The position numbers were made by a program, and so were the translations under genes. From an uncultured Actinomycetes bacterium (lineage in GTDB: Bacteria; Actinomycetota; Thermoleophilia; Gaiellales; JAICJC01), in assembly GCA_963797175.1 (NCBI GenBank), contig CAWCOL010000011.1, positions 95,853-159,852 of the forward strand: a DNA stretch of 64,000 nucleotides, read 5' to 3'. Below are positions 1 to 33,893 of this stretch, piece by piece; positions within the stretch are counted from its first letter, which is position 1, and the number at the start of each line of letters is the position of its first letter. The notes below the pieces were generated by a model. It was not told where the DNA came from and did not search any database. It was given only the letters and a program-made list of their open reading frames with translations.

Positions 1-776
1 CCGGCATCCACGGCGCGCTGAGCGTGCTGGAGGCGCTGGGCGCGCGGGGGACGCTGACGCTGAGCGATCTGGCCGCGGAGCTGGGGATGCCCAAGAGCAC
101 CCTGCACCGCGTCTGCGCCGCGCTCGTCGAGCGCGGCTGGGCGCTGCGCCGCCGCGACGGAGGCTACGAGCTCGGCATCCGCGCGCTCGGCGTCGGCGCC
201 CGGGCGGAGGAGCTGCCGGTCGTCACGGCGTTCCGCGGCGTCGCGTCCGACCTGCTCACCCGGCACAACGAGACCGTGTGCCTGGCGGTCGTGGACGGCG
301 ACGAGTCGGTGTTCGTGGCGATCGAGCACACCAGCTACCCGGTCCGTCTGATGACGCACGTGGGCACGCGAACGCCGGCGTTCGCCTCGGCCAGCGGCCG
401 CATCGTGCTGGCCGAGCGGCCGGACGACGCCATCTCCGGCGAGTACGGCGGCCGCGCCCTGGTCACGCCGTCGGGCCGGCGGCTGCGCGGCCTGGCCGAG
501 CTGCGTGAGATCCTGGACGCCGTGCGCCGCGAGGGCTACGCCGAGAACCACGAGGAGACCGCCGTCGGGCTGTACGCCGCGTCCGTCCCGGTGCGCAACC
601 GCCGGGGCAACGTGCTGGCGGCGCTGACGCTGTGCGTGCCCACGTCGCGGATGGGCGGCGATCGCCGGGAGCGGCTGCTGGCCGACCTGGCCGCCGCGGG
701 GCGGCGGCTGTCGGAGGACGTGGCCTGGCTGCCCGCCTACCACGCCCAGCGGGCCGAGCGCGAGGGCCCGGCGTGA
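1..776 (+). CDS. IclR-family transcriptional regulator (5' end probably outside window)
   Basis: ORF 24..776; the frame is open back to base 3. Has an N-terminal wHTH-like segment LSDLAAELGMPKSTLHRVCAALVERGW and an IclR-like effector domain. GC3 is high. Confidence 0.85.
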   Translation, partial: GIHGALSVLEALGARGTLTLSDLAAELGMPKSTLHRVCAALVERGWALRRRDGGYELGIRALGVGARAEELPVVTAFRGVASDLLTRHNETVCLAVVDGDESVFVAIEHTSYPVRLMTHVGTRTPAFASASGRIVLAERPDDAISGEYGGRALVTPSGRRLRGLAELREILDAVRREGYAENHEETAVGLYAASVPVRNRRGNVLAALTLCVPTSRMGGDRRERLLADLAAAGRRLSEDVAWLPAYHAQRAEREGPA

Positions 777-1717
777 GGGCGATCGTCTTCACCGGTGCGG
801 GCGGCGCCGAGGTGATGGCGCTCGAAGAGCGGCCCGACCCCGTGCCGGGAGCGAACGAGGTGGTGGTGGCGGCGACCCATGCCGGCCTGAACCCCGCCGA
901 CCTGGCGCAGCGCGCCGGCCGCTACCCGGCGCCGCCCGGCTCGGTGGCCGACGTCCCGGGGCTCGAGGTGGCCGGCGAGGTGGTCGCGTGCGGCGCGCAG
1001 GTCACGGCCTGGTCGCCGGGCGACCGCGTGTTCGGCGTGGTCGGCGGCGGCGGGCTGGCCGACCGGGTGCTGGTGCACGAGCGCCACGTCGCCCGCGTGC
1101 CTGACCGCCTGTCGGGCGAGCAGGCCGCGGCCGTTCCCGAGGCCTTCATCACCGCGCACGACGCGGTCTTCACCCAGTGCGGCCTGCGGATGGGCGAGAC
1201 GCTGCTGGTCAACGGCGCCAACGGCGGCGTCGGCTCGGCCGGCGTCCAGCTGGGCGTGGCCTGCGGCGCGCGGGTGCTCGCCAATGCCCGCTCCGACGAG
1301 GCCCGCGAGCGGCTGGCGGCGATGGGCGCCGACCCGGTCGCGCTGGACGACGTGCGCGACGAGGCGGATGTCGTGCTCGAGCTGGTGGGGGCGCCCAACC
1401 TGCCCGGCGACCTGCGCGCTGTCGCCTCGAAGGGGCGGATCGTGATCGTCGGCACCGGCGCCGGCGTGGACTCGGAGCTCTCGCTGCGGTCGCTGATGGG
1501 CAAGCGCGCGCACCTGATGGGCACGCTGCTGCGTGCGCGGCCGATGGAGGAGAAGGGTGCCGCCGTGCAGGCGTTCGCCCGCGAGGTGGTGCCGCTGCTG
1601 GCCTCGGGCCGCGTGGCACCGCTGATCGACCGCATCTTCCCGGCGGAGGAGGCGGCCGCGGCATTCGACCACCTGGCGGCTCCGGGCAAGTTCGGCAAGG
1701 TACTCCTCAGCTTTTGA
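773..1717 (+). CDS. NADPH:quinone oxidoreductase / zinc-type alcohol dehydrogenase superfamily (MDR)
   Basis: A GTG at 773 overlaps the upstream TGA (GTGA). The product starts VRAIVFTGAGGAEVMALEERPDP and contains GLNPADL and a GANGGVG Rossmann motif. ORF-track entry 632..1717 is the same frame with an upstream artefactual extension. Confidence 0.85.
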   Translation: MRAIVFTGAGGAEVMALEERPDPVPGANEVVVAATHAGLNPADLAQRAGRYPAPPGSVADVPGLEVAGEVVACGAQVTAWSPGDRVFGVVGGGGLADRVLVHERHVARVPDRLSGEQAAAVPEAFITAHDAVFTQCGLRMGETLLVNGANGGVGSAGVQLGVACGARVLANARSDEARERLAAMGADPVALDDVRDEADVVLELVGAPNLPGDLRAVASKGRIVIVGTGAGVDSELSLRSLMGKRAHLMGTLLRARPMEEKGAAVQAFAREVVPLLASGRVAPLIDRIFPAEEAAAAFDHLAAPGKFGKVLLSF

Positions 1718-2690
1718 TGATCGGGCGGCGGGTCGACCGGCGCACCGTCAGCTGCGGCATCAGCACGATGCTGCCGGCGGCGGGCAGCCCGGCGATCGCG
1801 TGCTCGAGGGCCGCGGCCGCGCCGGTGGCGGCAGCCGGCGTGTCCCAGCCGACCGCGGTCAGCGGTGGGTCGAGCAGCCGCGAGATCGGGTGGTCGTCGA
1901 AGCCGACGACCGACAGGTCGCGCGGCACCCGCAGCCGCAGGTCGCGGCACGCGTCGTAGACGCCGTAGGCAACGGAGTCCGAGAGCGCGAACACGGCCGT
2001 GGGGCGGTCGGGGCGCCCCAGCACGCGCAGCGCGGCCGACCGCGCCTCGCCAACGGCCAGCCCGCAGCGGACGCGGCGCACGCCGCGACGGCGCGGCAGC
2101 CGGTGGGGCGAGGCGCCGAGCACCGCGATCCGCTCGTGGCCGAGCCCGCGCAGGTGGTCGAGCGCCAGCGCGATCCCCGCCTCGGACGCGAATCGCACGG
2201 CGCGGGCGGGAGCGGGGAGGGAGGCGTTCACCGAGACGGTGGGCGTCGCCCGTGCAATCCGCCGCCAGCGCGGCGCGGCGGGGTCGAGCGGCAGCACGAT
2301 CAGTCCGTCCACGCGCTGGTCGGCGAGGTCCTCGGCCAGCTCCAGCTCGGCCGCCGGGTCGCCCGCCGCGTCGGCCAGCAGCAGGTGGAGGCCGCGGTCG
2401 CGCAAGGCGCGGCTCAGGTGGGAGACGAACTCCTGGTGCCAGTAGTCCGCCAGGCTGCCGCCGACGACGCCCACCATCCCCGTGCGGCCTCCGCGGAGGG
2501 CGCGCGCCACCGGGTCGCTGCGGAAGCCGATCCGGTCGGCCTCGCGGCGCACGCGCGCTGCCGTCTCGGGGGACACCCGCTCGCCGCGCAGGGCGTAGGA
2601 GACACCGGCCGGGGAGAGCCCGGTGAGCTCGGAGAGCTCCCGCAGGGTGGGTCGGTTGCGCCGGACGGGCGGTTTCGTCACAATGGCCAT
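1707..2690 (-). CDS. LacI-family transcriptional regulator
   Basis: Start MAIVTKPPVRRNRPTLRELSELTGLSPAGVSYALRG (HTH), followed by a periplasmic-binding-fold-like domain. ATG at 2690; an alternative GTG is at 2681. The ORF-track 1707..2948 extension is R/S-rich junk. Confidence 0.85.
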   Translation of the reverse strand: MAIVTKPPVRRNRPTLRELSELTGLSPAGVSYALRGERVSPETAARVRREADRIGFRSDPVARALRGGRTGMVGVVGGSLADYWHQEFVSHLSRALRDRGLHLLLADAAGDPAAELELAEDLADQRVDGLIVLPLDPAAPRWRRIARATPTVSVNASLPAPARAVRFASEAGIALALDHLRGLGHERIAVLGASPHRLPRRRGVRRVRCGLAVGEARSAALRVLGRPDRPTAVFALSDSVAYGVYDACRDLRLRVPRDLSVVGFDDHPISRLLDPPLTAVGWDTPAAATGAAAALEHAIAGLPAAGSIVLMPQLTVRRSTRRPIIKS

Positions 2691-3675
2691 GTTAAACGAT
2701 TCACCGAATCCGATACCGGGAGCGACCCTGCGCACCGATCTGCACCAGCACCTGTGGCCCGACCGGCTCGTCCACGCGCTGCGGGGGCGCGACCGGTCGC
2801 CGCGGCTGGACGGCGACACCGTCCACGTCGTCCACGAACGGCCGTTCCTGCTCGATCTCGCCGCACAGCGCGTGGCGACGCGCGTTGCCGCGATGGACAC
2901 CGTCGGCATCGACCGCGCCGTGATGTCACTCTCGACACCGGTCGGCATCGAGGCGCTGCCGGCGGCCGAGGCCGTGCCGCTGCTGGACGCCTACCACGAG
3001 GGGATGGTCGAGGCGATGGCCGAGTCGGGCGGCAGGCTGGCCGCCTGGGCCGCCTGCCCGCTGGACATGCCGGATGCGGGCGCGGAGATGATCGGCGAGC
3101 TGGTCGGCGGGGGCGGCTTCGTCGGCGCATCGATCGCCAGCGAGGCGCTCGCCTCCGATCGCGGCCTTGATCGCTGCCGGCCGCTGCTGTCGGTGCTGGA
3201 ACGCCTCGACGCGCCCCTCTTCGTGCACCCCGGCCCGGCGCCGTGGACGCCGCCGTACGGCGAGGAGCCGGACGTGCCGTGGTGGTGGCGCAACCTGGCG
3301 GTGTACCCCGGGCTGATGCTGCGCGCGTTCTACACCTGGCGCATGATCGGCGCCGCGCGGCACCCGAGGCTGCGGGTGCTGTTCACGATCATGGCCGGCG
3401 GAGCGCCGGCGCTGGAAGGCCGCTACCGCACCTTCAGCGGCGAGCCGGGGGAGATCGATCCGCGCGTCTTCCTGGACGCCGCCTCGAGCGACCGCCGCGC
3501 GCTCGAGCTGGCGCTGGCGACGTACGGCATCGAGCAGGTCGTGTACGGCACCGACTTCCCTGTCATCCCGGGCAACGCCTTGATGCTGGCCCTGGAGGAG
3601 ATGGGCCAGCCGGTCGTGGAGGCGGTGCTGGATCGCAACGTGGCGACGTTGCTGGGCGAGACCGAAGGAGGTTGA
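2683..3675 (+). CDS. Amidohydrolase-2 (ACMSD-like metal-dependent hydrolase) family protein
   Basis: MAMLNDS...TDLHQHLWPD has an HxH metal motif near the N-terminus and a later GTDFPV motif. ATG at 2683 or 2689. Confidence 0.75.
   Translation: MAMLNDSPNPIPGATLRTDLHQHLWPDRLVHALRGRDRSPRLDGDTVHVVHERPFLLDLAAQRVATRVAAMDTVGIDRAVMSLSTPVGIEALPAAEAVPLLDAYHEGMVEAMAESGGRLAAWAACPLDMPDAGAEMIGELVGGGGFVGASIASEALASDRGLDRCRPLLSVLERLDAPLFVHPGPAPWTPPYGEEPDVPWWWRNLAVYPGLMLRAFYTWRMIGAARHPRLRVLFTIMAGGAPALEGRYRTFSGEPGEIDPRVFLDAASSDRRALELALATYGIEQVVYGTDFPVIPGNALMLALEEMGQPVVEAVLDRNVATLLGETEGG
2691..2704. promoter_or_regulatory. Candidate LacI-type operator (imperfect palindrome centred on CG)
   Basis: GTTAAACGATTCAC matches its own reverse complement at 10 of 14 positions. 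It has the AAnCGnTT-like core typical of LacI operators and lies directly at the divergent start codons. Confidence 0.4.
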
Positions 3676-5520: not shown

Positions 5521-6648
5521 GTGAGCGATCTGCACCGGCTGCTCGCCGATCTCGTCGCCGTCGAGTCCGTCAATCCCGACCTCGTCCCGGGCGGCACCGG
5601 CGAGGCCGCGATGGCACGGTTCGTCGCGTCGTGGCTGGCCGCGGCGGGGCTCGAGGTGCGGGTGGACGAGGTCGCGCCGGGCCGCTGCAACGTCGTCGCC
5701 GTGGCGCGCGGTACGGGCGGCGGCCGCTCGCTGCTCCTGAACGCGCACATGGACACCGTGGCGCTGGACGGCGTCGACCGGCCGCTGGTCGGGCGGATCG
5801 AGGACGGCCGCATGTACGGCCGCGGCGCCTACGACATGAAGGCGGGGCTGGCGGCGATCATGTGGGCCGGGGCCGAGGCCGCCCGCCGGCCGCGGGCCGG
5901 CGACGTGATCGTGACCGGAGTGTGCGACGAGGAGTACGCCAGCATCGGCGCGCAGGCGCTGGTGCAGAGCACATGGGCCGACGCGGCGATCGTGACGGAG
6001 CCGACCGGCGACCGGGTGCGGATCGCGATCGCGCACAAGGGGTTCACCTGGCACCGGATCGAGGTGCGCGGCCGGTCGGCGCACGGCTCGCTGCCGGACG
6101 AGGGCGTCGACGCGATCGCGCACATGGGCCGGGTGCTGGCCGGGATCGAGCGGCTCTCCGGGGAGCTGGCCGACCGCGAGCCGCATCCCCTGCTCGGGCA
6201 CGGGTCGATCCACGCCTCGCTGATCGAGGGCGGCCGCGAGCTCTCCAGCTACCCCGACCGCTGCGTGCTCCAGCTCGAGCGGCGCACGTTGCCCGGAGAG
6301 ACACAGGAGGTGGTGGAGGGCGAGCTGAACGCGATCCTGAGCGAGCTCGCCGCCGCGGACCCGACGTTCCAGGCGGAGCTGCACACGTCGCTGGTGCGCC
6401 CGCCGCTGGGGACGGATGCCGGCGAGCCGATCGTCGAGGCCGCCCGTGCCGCCCTGGGGCCGGACGTCGAGCTGATCGGCGTGCCGTTCTGGGCCGACTC
6501 CGCGCTGATCGCCCAGGCCGGCATCCCCACCATCATCTTCGGCCCCGGCGGGGCCGGCGCGCACGCCGACGTCGAGTGGGTCGACCTTGCCCAGCTCGAC
6601 CGGGTGGCCGAGGCGCTGATCGCGGTCAGCGCCTCGTTCTGCGGCTGA
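5521..6648 (+). CDS. M20-family metallopeptidase (ArgE/DapE/acetylornithine deacetylase-like)
   Basis: LLADLVAVESVNPDL, LLLNAHMDTV and DEEYASIGA are typical M20 motifs. Confidence 0.85.
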   Translation: MSDLHRLLADLVAVESVNPDLVPGGTGEAAMARFVASWLAAAGLEVRVDEVAPGRCNVVAVARGTGGGRSLLLNAHMDTVALDGVDRPLVGRIEDGRMYGRGAYDMKAGLAAIMWAGAEAARRPRAGDVIVTGVCDEEYASIGAQALVQSTWADAAIVTEPTGDRVRIAIAHKGFTWHRIEVRGRSAHGSLPDEGVDAIAHMGRVLAGIERLSGELADREPHPLLGHGSIHASLIEGGRELSSYPDRCVLQLERRTLPGETQEVVEGELNAILSELAAADPTFQAELHTSLVRPPLGTDAGEPIVEAARAALGPDVELIGVPFWADSALIAQAGIPTIIFGPGGAGAHADVEWVDLAQLDRVAEALIAVSASFCG

Positions 6649-6748
6649 CCTCCGGTGCCGGGCACCGAGCCCGGCACGGACTCCGGCACGGAGTCTGGCA
6701 CCGACTCCGGCACCGTGCCCGGCACCAGTTCGGGTCCAGGTGCCAGGG
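6649..6748. repeat. REP-like array, about 7 units with 12-nt phasing (consensus about ACCGACTCCGGC)
   Basis: Units read accgagcccggc / acggactccggc / acggagtctggc / accgactccggc / accgtgcccggc / accagttcgggt. Terminal hairpins are GGTGCC-g-GGCACC (6654-6666) and GGCACC..GGTGCC (6721-6743). It fills the gap between two convergent stop codons. Confidence 0.8.
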
Positions 6749-7312
6749 TCAGCGCCACGGCGCCGGCGCCGGGAGCGGCACCATGCCGTCGCTGACGAAG
6801 CGCTCCAGGGAGGCGATCGAGCTGAACTGGTCGCGGATCCAGTCGAGGTCGAGGAAGGTCGGCGCCGGGTCGAGCCCGATCATCGCCCTGTAGGACGACG
6901 GTCCCCAGTCGGCCGGCGCCATGCACTGGTGCGCGCGCACGGGATTGAGCGCGAGGTAGCGGATCGTCTCCTTGAGGTGCGAGTCCGAGTCGATCATCTC
7001 GGCGTGGTACCGCCGCTCGAACAGGTGGCCGCGAAGGCCGTGGCGACGGTTGAACTTGCGGGCGTACTCCGAGTTCAGCTGCTGCATCCCGGCCGCCAGG
7101 TTGGGCTCGGGCGTGCGCGCCACGAGGTGGTAGTGGTTGGTCATCAGGCAGTAGGCGAACATGCGCCAGCCGTAGCGGGCCTGCACCTTCGCAACTAGCG
7201 CGAGGAAGAGCCGGTGGTCGTGTTCGGTGAAGAACACGACCTGGCCGCCGTTGCCGCGCATGGTCAGGTGGTAGAAGCCGTCGGCGATCTGGATTCTGAG
7301 TGGTCTGGACAT
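6749..7312 (-). CDS. REP-associated tyrosine transposase (RAYT; IS200/IS605-like Y1 HUH transposase domain)
   Basis: Has the HUH motif NHYHLV and the Tyr region ETIRYLALNPVRA. The product is 187 aa. No IS ends are apparent, but it is flanked by palindromic repeats. Confidence 0.8.
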   Translation of the reverse strand: MSRPLRIQIADGFYHLTMRGNGGQVVFFTEHDHRLFLALVAKVQARYGWRMFAYCLMTNHYHLVARTPEPNLAAGMQQLNSEYARKFNRRHGLRGHLFERRYHAEMIDSDSHLKETIRYLALNPVRAHQCMAPADWGPSSYRAMIGLDPAPTFLDLDWIRDQFSSIASLERFVSDGMVPLPAPAPWR

Positions 7313-7395
7313 GCCGCCAGCGTACGGACACCTCGCGTCACGGTGCTCGCACCACCCGTGCCGGATCCGTCACGGTTCGCTCACGTATGTGAAGT

Positions 7396-7470
7396 CCTCC
7401 GGCACCGAGTCTGGCACCGAGCCGGAGTACGTGCCGGAGTCAGTGCCCGGCTCGGTACCGGAGAACGATT
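7396..7470. repeat. REP-like array (2 forward plus about 3 inverted 12-nt units)
   Basis: Sequence ggcaccgagtct ggcaccgagccg gagtacgtgccg gagtcagtgccc ggctcggtaccg. Positions 7401-7417 are complementary to 7431-7447 at 14 of 17 positions. Confidence 0.8.
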
Positions 7471-7473
7471 CGG

Positions 7474-7869
7474 CTACCCGGAGACGGCGTCCGAGATCCA
7501 CTGGCCGAAGGCCTGCGGATCGGCCGTGCTGGAGCCGCCCACGCAGACGATCCGGGTGCCCGGCTCGAGCGCGGCGTAGGAGCGGACGGCGGCCGGATCG
7601 GGTGCCGCGACCACGGTGCCGGGCCCGGCCTCGACGCGGTCGTCGCCGATCTCGAAGGCGGCGCGGCCGGAGACGACGATGTACGCCTCCTGCTGGCCGG
7701 TCTCCTCCTCGGAGTGGCTGATGTCGAAGTCCTCGCCCGGGTCGCACACGATCGCGTTGATCCCGAACCCGGTCACGCCCAGCGGCCCGTTCAGTTGCTG
7801 CCACCGGCCGTACGGCGTCTCGGAGATCGGCTGGTCGTCGAGATTCACAGAGGCCACTGGCCCTCCCAT
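7474..7869 (-). CDS. Cupin-domain protein
   Basis: 131-aa ORF with good GC3 and a single cupin-like beta-barrel sequence (EAYIVVSGRAAFEIGDD...GTVV). Confidence 0.6.
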   Translation of the reverse strand: MGGPVASVNLDDQPISETPYGRWQQLNGPLGVTGFGINAIVCDPGEDFDISHSEEETGQQEAYIVVSGRAAFEIGDDRVEAGPGTVVAAPDPAAVRSYAALEPGTRIVCVGGSSTADPQAFGQWISDAVSG

Positions 7870-7879
7870 TCGTCAGTTC

Positions 7880-8593
7880 CTACCGTTTCGTCCCGCGGAT
7901 GATGACACCGCCGCCGCGTGACAGCACGCGCCACCGGACGCTGCCGATCCCGGCCGCGTCCCACATCGCGAGCACCGTGTCCAGCGGATGCTCGCGCCAG
8001 AACCCCTCGATGCTTCCGGCCAGGAACCGGCCGGTCTCGTACCAGCCGTCGCCGGCGACGCGCCCTGCGGACGGCAGACCGATCCGCGTCCAGGCCCACC
8101 ACGGCGGGTACCAGCCGCCGCCGGGAACGGCGAAGTCGAGCGAGGCGATCGCGCCGCCGGGACGCACGACGCGGGCCAGCTCGCGCAGCGTCGCGGCCGG
8201 ATCGTCCACGTAGCGGAGCAGGTAGGTGTGTGTCAGCGCATCCACCGAGGCGTCCTCCAGCGGCAGCCGCTCCGCCTCGCCCTCGAGCAGCTCGATCCGC
8301 GCGCCCAGCCCGGCGGCGGCGACCCGGCTGCGGCCGCGCTCGAGCATCGCGGCGCTCTGGTCGATCCCGACCACGCGGCAGCCGTAGCGGCGGACGAGGT
8401 CGATGGCGACCGCCGCCGTGCCGGTCGCCACGTCGGCCACCAGATCGTCGCGGCCCACGCCGAGCCCCTCGATCATGCGCCGGTGCCAGCGCGCGTCCTG
8501 GCCGAACGAGAGGATCTGTGCCCAGCGGTCGTAGTCGCCGGCGATCCCCGCGAACAGGCCCAGCGCGTGCTCCTTGCGCGCGGAGGCGGTCAT
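7880..8593 (-). CDS. Class I SAM-dependent methyltransferase (UbiE/MenG-like)
   Basis: The start MTASARKEH at 8593 overlaps the rnhA stop (ATGA). Motif I is VADVATGTAAVA, and ERLPLEDASVDA is also present. Confidence 0.8.
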   Translation of the reverse strand: MTASARKEHALGLFAGIAGDYDRWAQILSFGQDARWHRRMIEGLGVGRDDLVADVATGTAAVAIDLVRRYGCRVVGIDQSAAMLERGRSRVAAAGLGARIELLEGEAERLPLEDASVDALTHTYLLRYVDDPAATLRELARVVRPGGAIASLDFAVPGGGWYPPWWAWTRIGLPSAGRVAGDGWYETGRFLAGSIEGFWREHPLDTVLAMWDAAGIGSVRWRVLSRGGGVIIRGTKR

Positions 8594-9063
8594 GCCGCGT
8601 GCAGGTCCCGCTGCTCGACCGCCATCCGGTCGACGCGCTCGTTCAGCTCGATGCCGGAGTGGCCCTTGACCCGCCGGAACTCGATCGTGTGGCCGTCCAC
8701 CAGCGCCGCCAGCCGCTCCCAGAGATCCTGGTTCTTGACCGCCTTCTTGCCGGCGGTGCGCCAGCCGTTGCGCTGCCAGCCGGCCAGCCATCCCTGCGTG
8801 AACGCCTGCTCCACGTAGGCGCTGTCGGTGTGGACGACGACCCGGGTCGGGCGCGTGAGCGCGGCGAGGCCCTCGATCACCGACTGCAGCTCCATCCGGT
8901 TGTTCGTCGTCTGCGCCTCACCACCGGACAGCTCCCGTTCGTGGCCGTTCCAGCGCAGGATCGCGGCCCAGCCGCCGGGGCCGGGGTTGCCCGAGCACGC
9001 ACCGTCCGTCCACAGCTCGACCGCGTCGCCCATGGCAGCGCAGTCTACGATGTCGCCCGCCAT
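8590..9063 (-). CDS. rnhA: Ribonuclease HI
   Basis: WTDGACSGNPGPGGWAAIL, TNNRMEL and VKGHSGIELNERVD are the RNase H DEDD motifs. The start may be 9033 (MGDAVELW) rather than 9063. Confidence 0.9.
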   Translation of the reverse strand: MAGDIVDCAAMGDAVELWTDGACSGNPGPGGWAAILRWNGHERELSGGEAQTTNNRMELQSVIEGLAALTRPTRVVVHTDSAYVEQAFTQGWLAGWQRNGWRTAGKKAVKNQDLWERLAALVDGHTIEFRRVKGHSGIELNERVDRMAVEQRDLHAA

Positions 9064-9925
9064 GAGCCGTGGACGACCGCTTGCACTGGCCGTGCTCGGG
9101 CACGGCGTCGTCGATCCCGAGCAGCCGCACCTCCACGCGGACGATGAGGCCGTGCTGCGTGGCCGTGCCGCCTTCGAGACGATGCGCGTCTACGGCGGCG
9201 TCCCGTTCCGGCTCGACCGCCACCTCGAGCGGCTGGTCGCCTCGGCCGGCGTGCTCGGCCTTCCGATGCCCGATCCGGCAACGCTCGCGGCGCTGGCGGC
9301 GGACGCGGTGGCGGCGGCCGGCGTCCCGGCGGCGACGCTGCGGGTGGTGTGGACCGCCGGCCGGGAGGGCGAGGAGCGCGGTCAGGGCTTCGCGCTGGTG
9401 ACGCCGCTGCCCGAGGGGCTGGACGATCTGCGCCGGCGCGGGATCCGGCTGGCCGCACTCCAGCTCGCGATCGGCGCCCACGTCCGCCAGACCGCGCCGT
9501 GGCTGTTGCCTGGAGTGAAATCGACCAGCTACGCCGTCAACATGGCCGCGCAGCGCGAGGCGCGGCGACGCGGCGCCGATGACGCGGTCTTCCTCTCGGC
9601 GGAGGGCATCGTGCTGGAGGGGCCGACGTCGAACGTCTGGTTCCGCGAGGGTGGCGTGCTGCTGACGCCGGCGCTCGAGCTGGGCATCCTGGCCGGCGTC
9701 ACCAGGGACACGCTGCTGGACGCCGCCGCCGGCGCCGGCTACGAGGTGCGTGAGGGCGCGTTCCCGCTCGAGCGGCTGGCCGCCGCCGACGAGGCGTTCA
9801 CGTCGTCCAGCATCCGCGAGGTGGTAGGCGTGGTCGAGTTGGACGGCCGCCCGCTTGGCGGCGGCAGCCCGGGCCCCGCGGCCGCTGCCATGCAGGCGGC
9901 GCTTCGGGCCGCCGCGCCGGACTGA
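9062..9925 (+). CDS. Class IV aminotransferase family protein (ADC lyase / branched-chain or D-amino-acid aminotransferase-like)
   Basis: RAAFETMRVYGG, HLERL, VKSTSY and EGPTSNVWF are fold-type IV PLP motifs. Start at 9062 or 9050. Confidence 0.8.
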   Translation: MSRGRPLALAVLGHGVVDPEQPHLHADDEAVLRGRAAFETMRVYGGVPFRLDRHLERLVASAGVLGLPMPDPATLAALAADAVAAAGVPAATLRVVWTAGREGEERGQGFALVTPLPEGLDDLRRRGIRLAALQLAIGAHVRQTAPWLLPGVKSTSYAVNMAAQREARRRGADDAVFLSAEGIVLEGPTSNVWFREGGVLLTPALELGILAGVTRDTLLDAAAGAGYEVREGAFPLERLAAADEAFTSSSIREVVGVVELDGRPLGGGSPGPAAAAMQAALRAAAPD

Positions 9926-9934
9926 CGCCCGGGC

Positions 9935-10462
9935 TCAGAGCGCGCCGGCGGGCACGCGGTGCCAGGCCGCGACGTACTCGCGCTGGAGCGGGTGGGTGAG
10001 CCGCCCGGCCCACACGACCTGCACCATCGTCGGCACCTTCGGCGTCGAGCGCGGGTACATGCCGGCCTCGAACGGGAGCCGGTCGCCCTTGCGGTGGTTG
10101 CAGCGGCGGCAGGCCGCGACGACGTTGTCCCAGGCGTGCTCGCCGCCGCGGGAGAGCGGCTTGACGTGGTCGACCGTCAGGTCGGCGGGGCCGCCGTCAC
10201 GGCCGCAGTAGGCGCAGCGCCAGCTGTCCCGGCAGAAGAGGACGCGCCGCACGACGTTGCGGCGCACGATCGGCCGCAACTCGACGTACGCCGGCACCTG
10301 GAGGATCACCGGCAGCGCGACGGTCAGGCGCTGCGAGCGGTAGAGCACGGACGGCTCCTCCGCGATCACCTGCGCGTGACCGCACACGACCATACCGACG
10401 GCCCGCTCGCGGGAGACGAGCGTCATCGGTCGCATCGTCGCGTCCAGCAGCAGACAGCGCAT
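9935..10462 (-). CDS. HNH endonuclease family protein
   Basis: CAYCG...DHVKPLSRGGEHAWDNVVAACRRCNHRKG. GGAGG lies 5 nt upstream of the ATG at 10462. Confidence 0.85.
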   Translation of the reverse strand: MRCLLLDATMRPMTLVSRERAVGMVVCGHAQVIAEEPSVLYRSQRLTVALPVILQVPAYVELRPIVRRNVVRRVLFCRDSWRCAYCGRDGGPADLTVDHVKPLSRGGEHAWDNVVAACRRCNHRKGDRLPFEAGMYPRSTPKVPTMVQVVWAGRLTHPLQREYVAAWHRVPAGAL

Positions 10463-31596: not shown

Positions 31597-31600
<4 letters not shown>

Positions 31601-32088
31601 GGGTGCTCGTCCTCGCCGACACGCACGTGCCCGACCACGCACGCGCGCTGCCGGCGTCGCTCGCGCCGCACCTGGAGTGGGCCGAGCTGATCCTGCACGC
31701 GGGCGACGCGACCTCCGCCGACGTGTTGGTCGAGCTGTCGGCGTCCGCCCCGGTGCGGGCGGTCGTGGGCAACATGGACGGCTGGGACGTGCCGGGGTGG
31801 GGCGCCGCCGAGCAGCTCGAGCTTGAGCTCGAGGGCGTCCGGGTGGCGATGCTGCACGACTCCGGCGCCCGCCACGGACGCGAAGCACGGCTCCGTCGCC
31901 GGTTCCCCGATGCCGGCGTGATCGTCTTCGCCCACTCCCACCAGCCGGTCAACGAGGTTGCGGACGGCGTGCGGTTCCTCAACCCCGGCAGCCCAACCTG
32001 GAAGCGGCGGGCGCCCGAGCCGACGGTCGCCCGGCTGACGCTGGCCGGAGGCCGCGCGGAGGCCGAGCTCGTGCCGCTCGCGGGCTGA
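31597..32088 (+). CDS. YfcE/MJ0936-family metallophosphoesterase
   Basis: Contains [21 protein letters not shown] and AHSHQP. The ATG overlaps the ilvD TGA. Confidence 0.85.
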
Positions 32089-32378
32089 CCGGTGCCGGGC
32101 ACCGACCCCGGCACCGAGTCTGGCTCCGACTGCGGTACCTAGCCCGGCACCGACTCCGGCACGAACTCTGGCTCGGTGCCAGAGTCGGTGCCGGAGGACT
32201 TCCAATGCGTGGTGAGGAACGGCGGGTGCCGTGACACGTCGTCGCGGATCTGGCACGAACGACGGCCTGGTTGAGCCGAACCGTCGAACGTGACGGCCGG
32301 CGTGACGGTGGCCCGAAATGTCACAGAGGTGCCGGGTTCCGTGCCGGAGTCGGTACCGAGAGTCCGTGCCGGAGTAGT
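32089..32378. repeat. REP-like arrays flanking a roughly 130-bp core; transposase-less counterpart of 6649-7470
   Basis: 32089-32195 has six forward plus two inverted 12-nt units. 32328-32378 has about four inverted units. 32173-32202 matches the reverse complement of 7391-7420 at 29 of 30 positions. Confidence 0.8.
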
Positions 32379-32399
32379 CAGGTCGGCGCGGCCCGCCGC

Positions 32400-33893
32400 T
32401 CAGCCGGACTCGGTGACGGGCTCGAGGTCGGCCAGGTCGTTCTCGCGCGCGACCTGGAGGTCGCCGTGGCGGGCATGGCCGCCGGACGAGCCGCCGCCCA
32501 GCCGCAGCGCCGGCGGCCGGGCCACGACGAGCGTGGCCGCCGGTGCGGCGACGTGCGCGATGCCGGGCAGCGCGGCCGGGCCGGCCGGAGCCGGGACGAC
32601 CGGGCCGCCCAGGGTGGTGGCGGGATGGGCGCCGACCGCCGGCACCGTGATGCGCAGGTCGTGCGCCGCCTGCCAGGCCAGCAGGTAGCGGTACGGGTCG
32701 ATCACGCCGTCGTACCCCTGCCAGAGCAGCCCTTTCGGGTGCAGCTCGAAGTGCAGGTGGCAGGGGGTGCCCTCGGCGTCGCCGGTGTTGCCCATGAACC
32801 CGAGCACCGTGCCCGCCTTGACATGGTGGCCGCTGACCGCGGCCGGGGCGTAGTCGCGCAGGTGCGCGTAGTAGAACTCGTTGCCGTCGGCGTCGCGCAG
32901 CCACAGCCGGTTGCCGCCCAGCGTGTTCCACCCGACCATGTAGACCATCGAGTCGGTCACCGCCACCAGCGGCGCGCCGCAGCGCGAGAAGATGTCCACG
33001 CCGTGGTGCCAGATCGTGTCGGCGCGGGGCGCGCCGAAGCTGTCGGTGAAGTCGGCGGGCGCGGCCACCGGGAACACGTACCGGCCGGGGGACAGGTGGA
33101 CGTGCACGCGCGGCGCGGGCCGCACCGCGGCGTGGTGGTGCTTCGCCTGGCGTGAGCCGTGGTGCACGACCGGGTGCGCCGGGCGCGTGCCGCCGCCGTG
33201 CGTCCCGCCGCCCTGGTCGCCACCCTGCGGGTGGATTCCGCCCGACCCGTGGTGCGTGCCCTGCCCGCCCGGAAGCGTTCCACCGCCGTGGCCGGGGTCA
33301 GGCGGCGGCGCCGCCTCGGCGCGCCCGACGAGGATCACCGAGCCGGCCGGGAGCCCGCCGTGCGGGCGCATCACGTCGATGCGAAGCGCCGTCGCGGTCG
33401 CGCCGCGGCCGTCCGCGGCGGCGGCGGAGCCGAGCACGGTTGCGCGTCCCCACGTGCTCAGCTGGAAGGTCGCTCCCGGCGTGGCGTCGGTGGCCGTCCC
33501 GTACAGCGCGAGGCCGTCCAGCGTCACCTGCGGCGCGCCGGTGTCGTCCAGCCGCGCCGTCGCGGCGTCCGCCGTCACGCGGCCGTGGAAGAGCGAGACG
33601 TGGGTGGCCGAGGCGGAGCCGTCGCCCAGCGCCGTGCCGCCCAGCTGCACGATCTCGCCGGCGGGCCCGTAGATCCAGCCCGGATGGTCGGGATCGGGAG
33701 CGGGGGCGTCCACCACCTTCGCCGGCCCGTCCGGCTGCGGGATGATCACTCGCGCGATCAGCGGCGCCGGCGCCGGAGCGTCCGCCGCGTGCGCCGGCGC
33801 AACCGCCAGCAGCCCGATCGCAAGCCCCGCGATCAGGCGCGCACAGGCGCCACCGTTGGGACGGCAGCGCGGGATGTCAGCCCGTGCCCCCAC
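32400..33893 (-). CDS. Secreted M23-family metallopeptidase
   Basis: Signal-like N-terminus LIAGLAIGLLAVAPAHA. The M23 motifs HHGVDIF and GNTGDAEGTPCHLHFELH are present. Confidence 0.85.
   Translation of the reverse strand: MGARADIPRCRPNGGACARLIAGLAIGLLAVAPAHAADAPAPAPLIARVIIPQPDGPAKVVDAPAPDPDHPGWIYGPAGEIVQLGGTALGDGSASATHVSLFHGRVTADAATARLDDTGAPQVTLDGLALYGTATDATPGATFQLSTWGRATVLGSAAAADGRGATATALRIDVMRPHGGLPAGSVILVGRAEAAPPPDPGHGGGTLPGGQGTHHGSGGIHPQGGDQGGGTHGGGTRPAHPVVHHGSRQAKHHHAAVRPAPRVHVHLSPGRYVFPVAAPADFTDSFGAPRADTIWHHGVDIFSRCGAPLVAVTDSMVYMVGWNTLGGNRLWLRDADGNEFYYAHLRDYAPAAVSGHHVKAGTVLGFMGNTGDAEGTPCHLHFELHPKGLLWQGYDGVIDPYRYLLAWQAAHDLRITVPAVGAHPATTLGGPVVPAPAGPAALPGIAHVAAPAATLVVARPPALRLGGGSSGGHARHGDLQVARENDLADLEPVTESG

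Follow-up and report, generated by a model that had tools for sequence, protein, structure and literature searches.

REPIN-RAYT systems combine doublets of repetitive extragenic palindromic (REP) sequences that form hairpins with a single-copy gene for a REP-associated tyrosine transposase (RAYT), and have been described in Pseudomonas and Escherichia coli (PMC3116915; PMC3337134; PMC3333891). Other described systems that invite comparison here are the bacterial interspersed mosaic elements (BIMEs) of E. coli and the TIRYT genes or ‘TIRtrons’ (Di Nocera et al., 2013; PMC3733652), which equate to TnpA-Y1 subclass 2.1 of Quentin et al. (2018; PMC6006769). The subject of this analysis is locus B, a gene-less element at positions 32089-32378 of a 64,000-nt stretch of DNA from a soil actinobacterium (the window; C11:95853-159852 of the host genome), which also contains a RAYT locus (locus A, around 6749-7312 on the minus strand). 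Locus B is likely to belong to a genus-restricted, RAYT-associated, non-coding family of REPIN/BIME-like repeats that would have been spread by the enzyme. Its membership of the repeat family is near certain, and RAYT-dependent mobilisation, which is argued by analogy with the described systems, is favoured with more reserve.

Several properties of this family recall REPIN-RAYT systems. A RAYT of the Y1/HUH type is flanked by repeats that are also dispersed, without a gene, through intergenic DNA; opposed repeat copies form long hairpins; copies number in the tens and have diverged to varying degrees; the RAYT is passed on vertically at one fixed position, and its repeats are specific to the lineage; and the copies are preferentially sited behind gene ends. 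In contrast to those systems, the spacer is not short but a conserved core of 133-134 nt with boxes of its own, and the host is a Gaiellales-type actinobacterium rather than a proteobacterium.

The window lies in a draft metagenome-assembled genome (MAG) of 3.84 Mb in 11 contigs (72% G+C, 88% complete), so copy numbers are lower bounds; C numbers denote contigs of this genome (G000), and G001, G003, G006 and G008 are comparison genomes. The pattern GGCAC-N7-GGCAC-N7-GGCAC occurs 45 times in the genome, versus 0 for the reversed control pattern, well beyond what chance would give. On the canonical strand of the element, which is the minus strand at locus B, a short array of 12-nt GGCACCGAsTCy units is followed by the 133-134-nt core, the junction GGAAGTCCTCC, two forward units, a longer run of inverted units and a terminal palindrome, and the forward and inverted units can form a hairpin as single-stranded DNA or as RNA. 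The junction module (CCTCC/GGCACCGAsTCTGGCAC) with its inverted units was found at 21 places. The contig ends C10:28025-37990 and C7:1-9966 overlap over 10 kb at 97.4% identity, reflecting either assembly redundancy or two strain variants within the MAG, and repeat copies there would be counted twice if the overlap were ignored, so the junctions at C7:6.6k and C10:34.6k are taken as one locus and the 21 places become 20 distinct loci. A single one of these 20 carries a gene, the RAYT; the other 19 are gene-less. The initial annotation had regarded locus B as a second copy of the RAYT scaffold, but the genome-wide search for copies with or without a RAYT that it had suggested shows it to be one of seven full-scaffold copies and one of twenty loci, referred to as family 1.

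The full-scaffold copies are defined by the core. When the core of locus B (134 nt, 32197-32330) was used as a query (blastn, nhmmer), six further full-length copies were recovered with 71-96% identity; nhmmer gave E=2e-37 to 4e-24 at seven places, and a profile added a diverged eighth at 8e-06. With C7 and C10 again the same locus, these eight places are seven distinct loci, termed class I (B, C6:60.6k, C7:6.4k, C9:1634k, C5:932k, C8:191k and C9:535k), and the core alignment A1 has eight rows for seven loci, just as the 21-row alignment still lists C7 and C10 separately. In each of the seven, exactly 133-134 nt separate the end of the distal array from the junction. Set beside the REPIN form, in which two inverted repeat copies around a short spacer fold into one hairpin, the picture is mixed: the opposed arrays do pair in the predicted fold, but around this long conserved core, and 13 of the 20 loci have no distal array near the junction: the RAYT locus among them has a forward array beyond its gene, and the other 12 consist of proximal core, hairpin and terminal palindrome. 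Closest-partner comparisons separate several subfamilies of two or more copies, with pairs such as B/C6 (94% over 224 nt), C7/C9:1634k (93%), C8:191k/C9:535k (81%) and C6:8197/C9:19851 (76% over 233 nt).

Evidence for copying comes from the sister of locus B at C6:60.6 kb, which is 94-96% identical to it over 224 nt, a stretch that begins in the last forward units, takes in the core and ends at the third distal unit, between unrelated flanks. The array has six units in locus B and three in this copy. Elsewhere, C5:121381-121526 is a clear example of an expanded array, with a 24-nt double unit (GTGCCGGGTTCCGTCCCGGAGTCG) present three times in exact tandem, so arrays change by gain and loss of units. 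The distribution of the arrays is restricted to the genus: the four genomes of the genus have 22-58 triple-unit arrays each, and the 37 from other genera have 0-4, about the level of the reversed control. Orthologous loci were compared, as the initial annotation had proposed. G006, from a different genus of the same family, also has the phosphoesterase and M23 peptidase genes that flank locus B as convergent neighbours, and there the homologous C-terminal frame of the peptidase (…RENALTDL…*) ends 13 nt from the phosphoesterase stop, versus 311 nt between the stops here, a difference like that expected of an insertion; no such comparison could be drawn within the genus, since the synteny is broken in G001 and G003. 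The M23 orthologue on contig C5 of G006 has an in-frame stop (contig locus L023, 1333-1335) ~80 codons before the homologous C-terminal end; either the gene is truncated or a pseudogene, or the sequence contains an error.

Locus B nearly fills the 311-nt gap between its two convergent neighbours, and its parts, with these genes, are as follows.

31597-32088, plus strand: Metallophos_2 phosphoesterase, left neighbour of locus B, with its TGA stop at 32086-32088.
32089-32104, plus strand: terminal palindrome CCGGTGCC-G-GGCACCG, the outer tip, which begins directly behind the phosphoesterase TGA stop.
32098-32172, plus strand: array of about six 12-nt units (GGCACCGACCCC, GGCACCGAGTCT, GGCTCCGACTGC, GGTACCTAGCCC, GGCACCGACTCC, GGCACGAACTCT), which are the inverted units on the canonical minus strand.
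32173-32202, minus strand: junction module, GAAGTCCTCC then two forward units, GGCACCGACTCT and GGCACCGA; it matches 7391-7420 at 29 of 30 positions and is present at 20 loci.
32203-32327, minus strand: conserved core, 133-134 nt from the last distal-array unit to the TCC of the junction (hidden Markov model (HMM) region 32197-32330).
32230-32235, minus strand: GTCACG box (CGTGAC on the plus strand) at -40 from the junction, a position that is better conserved than any other box position of the family.
32266-32273, minus strand: CAACCAGG box (CCTGGTTG on the plus strand), from alignment A1.
32289-32295 and 32301-32307, minus strand: two CGTGACG heptamers, which on the canonical strand are GTCACG boxes at -99 and -111 (sequence check).
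32328-32378, plus strand: distal array of four units (GGTGCCGGGTTCC, GTGCCGGAGTC, GGTACCGAGAGTCC, GTGCCGGAGTAG), inverted on the plus strand and complementary to the array at 32098-32172.
32400-33893, minus strand: M23 peptidase, right neighbour of locus B.

The periodicity of these arrays is recovered by independent means: a repeat search placed 32098-32172 in its family D1 with a spacing of 12, Tandem Repeats Finder (TRF) gave a period of 12 with 5.4-6.2 copies, and both detected a second phased 12-nt array at 32173-32196. Four inverted-repeat pairs (I1-I4) of 26-30 nt, 77-82% complementary, link the distal array to 32098-32172. Folding of the whole element as single-stranded DNA gave -84.9 and -92 kcal/mol for the two strands (z=-5.3 and -5.7), and in the predicted fold the junction module and its adjoining units form a local hairpin beside the junction while the outer arrays pair around the core. 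The tip consensus CCGGTGTCC GGCAC CGTACC G GGCAC closes most members of the family.

At least nine copies of family 1 begin 0-20 nt past a stop codon. A crude gene caller based on third-position G+C (GC3) was tried for a table of gene context and missed known genes, so this statement rests on reading the printed junctions. Such starts fit either selection against insertion elsewhere or a secondary role of the hairpin at 3' ends. The arrays of both loci in the window (6643-6677 and 32083-32114) open at GGC TGA CC, in which the CC is part of the terminal consensus CCGGTG(T)CCGGCAC; in other copies the codon ahead of the stop differs (gcc, gac, ctc or ttc) and the element starts 0-20 nt past the stop, so the shared GGC is probably a coincidence.

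The only gene-bearing member of the scaffold is locus A, which comprises three parts.

6649-6731, plus strand: left forward array, which begins 3 nt past the stop of an M20 peptidase gene.
6749-7312, minus strand: RAYT gene (187 aa), the only gene carried within the scaffold.
7313-7463, plus strand: RAYT 5' flank (83 nt), junction GAAGTCCTCC, two forward units and inverted units, with GTCACG boxes at -61 and -29.

The open reading frame (ORF) at this locus is a Y1_Tnp protein by Pfam (E=8.8e-11) and matches the NCBIfam model REP_Tyr_transpos (E=1.2e-21, 77.2 bits), and its HxH motif (NHYHL) and catalytic Tyr (RYLALNP) align with those of E. coli TnpA-REP (PDB 4ER8; E=0.0018). Phased 12-nt arrays lie on both sides of it, at 6661-6726 and 7421-7447 (repeat search and TRF), and among the three RAYT-like genes of the genome only this one, RAYT-A, is flanked by family 1 units. 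RAYT-A stands between the same M20-peptidase and cupin neighbours in G001 and G003, both of the same genus; relative to these genomes the neighbours are ~78% identical in nucleotide sequence and the RAYT 58-60% in amino acid sequence, and their RAYT genes are likewise flanked by 12-nt GGCAC units in a different arrangement. A search for relatives of the RAYT in named genomes returned one close fragment, in an uncultured Actinomycetes MAG (MFD09368.bin.1.228; G008, binned in another genus). Its contig C9 is 96% identical to window positions 7195-10324 (C11:103046-106176), RAYT 5' flank and hairpin included, but its RAYT ends after ~40 codons and is followed by sequence that is 79% identical to C9:1145049-1145594 of G000 (the two parts are at 1-3119 and 3106-3651 of the G008 contig). 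Either the RAYT has truly been rearranged internally here, or the contig or bin is chimeric.

The parallel between loci A and B that the initial annotation had drawn is borne out. The 30-mer at 32173-32202 (TCGGTGCCAGAGTCGGTGCCGGAGGACTTC) agrees with the reverse complement of 7391-7420 in 29 of its 30 bases, the heptamers are where they were reported to be (CGTGACG at 32289-32295 and 32301-32307; CGTCACG in the RAYT flank at 7336-7342 and 7368-7374), and the order of array, spacer, GAAGTCCTCC, two forward units and inverted units is common to both. The pairwise alignment it had called for (blastn of the reverse complement of 32050-32400 against 6600-7500) produced one colinear match of 110 nt at 80% identity (window 7382-7491 with the reverse complement of 32104-32211, E=1.5e-23) that spans junction and hairpin, and the remaining matches between the loci are cross-matches of unit with unit. 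The two scaffolds are colinear without having identical tips: in locus A, CGGTGCC-G/C-GGCACCG forms the outer end of the forward array, and in locus B it forms that of the inverted array. The sharing of the scaffold is real.

The spacer of the RAYT locus is more distant. The class I core HMM finds only a 1.7-bit colinear match in the interior of the RAYT locus, in the last 40 nt of the 5' flank. This flank is similar to the proximal cores of C5:24034, C6:8197 and C9:19851 (z=5.9, 4.3 and 3.5), and three other copies share its box positions at -61 and -29. A 61-column profile built from 20 of the 21 rows, without the RAYT row, matches the flank in the right place and on the right strand with E=1.3 genome-wide, where it ranks 23rd, behind the 20 training sequences and two unrelated sites. 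These similarities place the RAYT 5' flank among the proximal cores of the family, as a diverged member.

The heptamers, which had been proposed as candidate recognition or promoter elements, are part of a real conserved feature. GTCACG occurs 31 times in 2.67 kb of cores, or 11.6 per kb versus 0.93 per kb genome-wide (12.5-fold), and 27 of the 31 boxes are on the canonical strand; one is at -40 from the junction in 11 of the 20 copies and at -109 or -111 in eight. Class I cores also contain the CAACCAGG box. Its CAACCA and its last G are present in every aligned row (C62-A67 and G69 in B_C11 numbering), and only position seven varies, with A in C8:191k, which reads CAACCAAG, and G in the other seven of the eight rows. 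These cores further keep a GTGACA-N10-TGTCAC hairpin at the distal end. RNAalifold on the eight core rows found no support from covariation (covariation term +1.22), an Rfam scan of 31900-32600 at E<=10 returned nothing but models of micro-RNAs and lncRNAs, which owed their matches to the hairpin and fell far short of their gathering scores, and scans for the consensus of an intrinsic terminator or of a sigma-70-type promoter found none.

By extension from Y1/HUH enzymes and REP-RAYT systems (PMC3333891; PMC3479197; PMC8266576), the enzyme would read the junction and hairpin on single-stranded DNA and would cut and rejoin there. Such reactions could spread gene-less copies in trans to new intergenic sites, mostly just past stop codons, and the number of units would change by slippage or unequal exchange. 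In this scheme locus B is probably a non-autonomous element that is handled in trans by RAYT. Because it lies directly behind a stop codon and between converging genes, its hairpin probably also serves as a 3'-end structure, a terminator or RNA stabiliser, for the neighbouring genes.

Several observations weigh against assigning locus B to a RAYT-driven family. The 77.2 bits of the RAYT fall just under the NCBIfam cut-off of 80, its match to E. coli TnpA-REP is weak, and with two further RAYT-like genes in the genome family 1 is assigned to RAYT-A through the shared flanking repeats only. Unlike a REP, which is a discrete imperfect palindrome of 20-40 nt, the unit here is a non-palindromic 12-mer in phased arrays of variable length, hairpins form only between arrays that face each other, and GGAAGTCCTCC stands at the junction in place of a GTAG tag; having neither a discrete palindrome nor GTAG, the repeat fails the classical definition of a REP. 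The similarity to the RAYT 5' flank, which the initial annotation had called patchy, is no better for the proximal core of locus B itself than for dinucleotide shuffles (z=1.1, p=0.15), and it is to other copies of the family that the flank can be matched. No movement was observed: a scan of metagenome contigs with the flanking phosphoesterase gave a best match of 70% identity and so provided no empty or filled site at strain level. The comparison with G006 crosses genera, and in the same-genus genomes G001 and G003 a different gene follows the phosphoesterase. Finally, the 134-nt core was not found in the whole genomes of the three other members of the genus, which do have the arrays, so the arrays are old within the genus and the core is younger or fast-evolving; the core may be a young passenger that lies outside the substrate of the enzyme.

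Alternative explanations for locus B were also weighed. The initial annotation had offered a decayed or deleted second REPtron, in which a RAYT of the element's own was lost from the site by deletion, with the flanking repeats and a remnant spacer staying behind. This would account for the order of parts that it shares with the RAYT locus and for the GTCACG boxes in both spacers, but an in situ deletion would leave a unique scar, and the core is found with the same length of 133-134 nt at seven loci. Nor does any RAYT remnant accompany locus B or the other gene-less copies, 19 in all, from 1 kb upstream of the junction to 200 nt past it (tblastn, best E=0.28); the distal half of the core has no significant similarity to DNA around the 3' end of the RAYT (p=0.10-0.76; Smith-Waterman with dinucleotide shuffles); and none of the three RAYT-like genes, the only ones in the genome, is near locus B. 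This explanation is unsupported, already largely refuted and extremely improbable. The initial annotation's other suggestion, a non-autonomous element similar to miniature inverted-repeat transposable elements (MITEs), fared better: there is a dispersed family with 19 of its 20 loci gene-less and a near-identical sister at an unrelated site, from which mobilisation in trans can be argued, but the element is not an internal-deletion product of the RAYT locus. An origin of that kind was considered and rejected, as the hairpin end is shared but the core is unlike the RAYT 3' region, is marginal in its similarity to the 5' flank and holds no coding remnants. Also rejected was a MITE, or a palindrome-associated transposable element (PATE), with a multi-copy, mobile, autonomous insertion sequence (IS), as the RAYT occurs only once and its locus is conserved throughout the genus. 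One could also view the core as a gene for a small RNA or small protein that is carried as cargo by the repeats, given a length conserved within 1 nt, its invariant blocks and its conserved distal hairpin; with no Rfam match beyond sub-threshold micro-RNA models, no covariation, no promoter consensus, and one-base differences in length among copies that argue against a reading frame, we consider this very unlikely.

A further possibility is that the cell keeps the element for its own use, that it is not moving at present and that its association with RAYT is historical only. It might then act as a bidirectional terminator without a U-tract, as a 3'-end RNA stabiliser, or as a docking array for a protein that reads the GGCAC units or the GTCACG boxes. 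Starts 0-20 nt past stop codons in at least nine copies, the position of locus B between convergent genes, the strong fold, boxes conserved in position and strand, and the fixed length of the core would all suit such a role. However, the core shows no covariation and no intrinsic-terminator consensus, it is absent from the orthologous regions as well as the whole genomes of same-genus relatives, where a needed regulator should be present, and a sister of 94-96% identity at an unrelated site requires recent copying. A host function as the whole explanation is therefore unlikely, and as a secondary, exapted role it is compatible with membership of a RAYT-associated repeat family.

Comparison with other systems helps to place this family. 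Like the BIMEs of E. coli, it is a mosaic of a few module types in fixed order, its subfamilies differ in their internal modules, and its members are extragenic and follow gene ends; unlike the linkers of BIMEs, which are ~10-35 nt long and in some cases bind IHF, its internal module is 133-134 nt and has no known binding protein. It shares with TIRYT systems a RAYT-like gene outside the world of GTAG-tagged REPs, whose flanking inverted repeats also occur as gene-less families of moderate abundance, some of them organised as dimers or clusters. In contrast, the terminal inverted repeats (TIRs) of TIRYT systems have GGGGWSAS in common rather than a build of phased 12-nt units, and proteins of subclass 2.1 have a C-terminal helix-turn-helix, of which Pfam shows none in RAYT-A at E<=0.001 (this comparison is by domain content). 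As in PATEs and MITEs of the IS200/IS605 group, the copies are gene-less, keep the hairpin ends of a Y1 element and could be mobilised in trans; unlike those elements, the core is not the product of an internal deletion in a gene-bearing locus, and the RAYT, being single-copy and syntenic across the genus, behaves as a domesticated gene and not as an active IS. The system works like REPIN-RAYT, has the mosaic build of BIMEs and resembles TIR families, and it is a variant of these with arrays and a long core.

The same genome contains a second repeat family (family 2) of ~23 loci, for example C5:605250-605396, C9:38211-38357 and C6:70687-70833. Its members consist of a hairpin, GGGGCCCGGCACGGGGTCTGGCACCGTGCCAGACCCC, followed by a conserved module of ~95 nt, often with a second hairpin and further modules, and the module has GTGACG boxes and a CAACCAKG box, so a box of the CAACCAGG type is found in family 2 as well. 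A doublet of this family lies in the 5' flank of a paralogous RAYT (C9:28182-28739) that is 62% identical to RAYT-A and has hairpins of the form GGGGCCCGGCAC...GGGCCCC. The genome thus holds two enzyme-repeat pairs whose cores have box motifs in common. An HMM of the family 2 core gives a weak match to family 1 cores in the region of the CAACCAKG box only (E=0.04-0.7 in a small search space), and this similarity is suggestive of homology between the two cores. The third RAYT-like gene (C9:54420-54866) is 43% identical to RAYT-A, scores 77.6 bits with the NCBIfam model and has no repeat arrays in its immediate flanks.

These features raise the more tentative possibility that deep-branching actinobacteria contain a distinct, modular RAYT-driven replicator, in which the substrate is an expandable array of 12-nt units instead of a fixed palindrome and the boxes of the core are shared with family 2. 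We regard this as a conjecture that may well prove wrong. If it is true, the core would be a functional part, such as a cleavage or guide region or a site for a host factor, and not filler, and a single ancestral system would have given rise to both enzyme-repeat pairs by co-divergence.

Work on REPIN-RAYT systems has dealt almost exclusively with Proteobacteria, where the substrate is a discrete palindrome, and this genome provides a clean actinobacterial case. It offers one syntenic RAYT, about twenty gene-less elements composed of countable 12-nt modules, and a core of fixed length with positioned boxes, from which short, defined oligonucleotides can be designed for binding and cleavage experiments on how a Y1 enzyme reads an array as opposed to a single hairpin. 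In addition, the second RAYT and its related repeat family make up a natural pair of enzyme-substrate specificities to compare. For the annotation of Gaiellales-type genomes, such gaps of 150-300 nt behind stop codons are to be read as repeat insertions, and not as missed genes or as loci from which a gene was lost.

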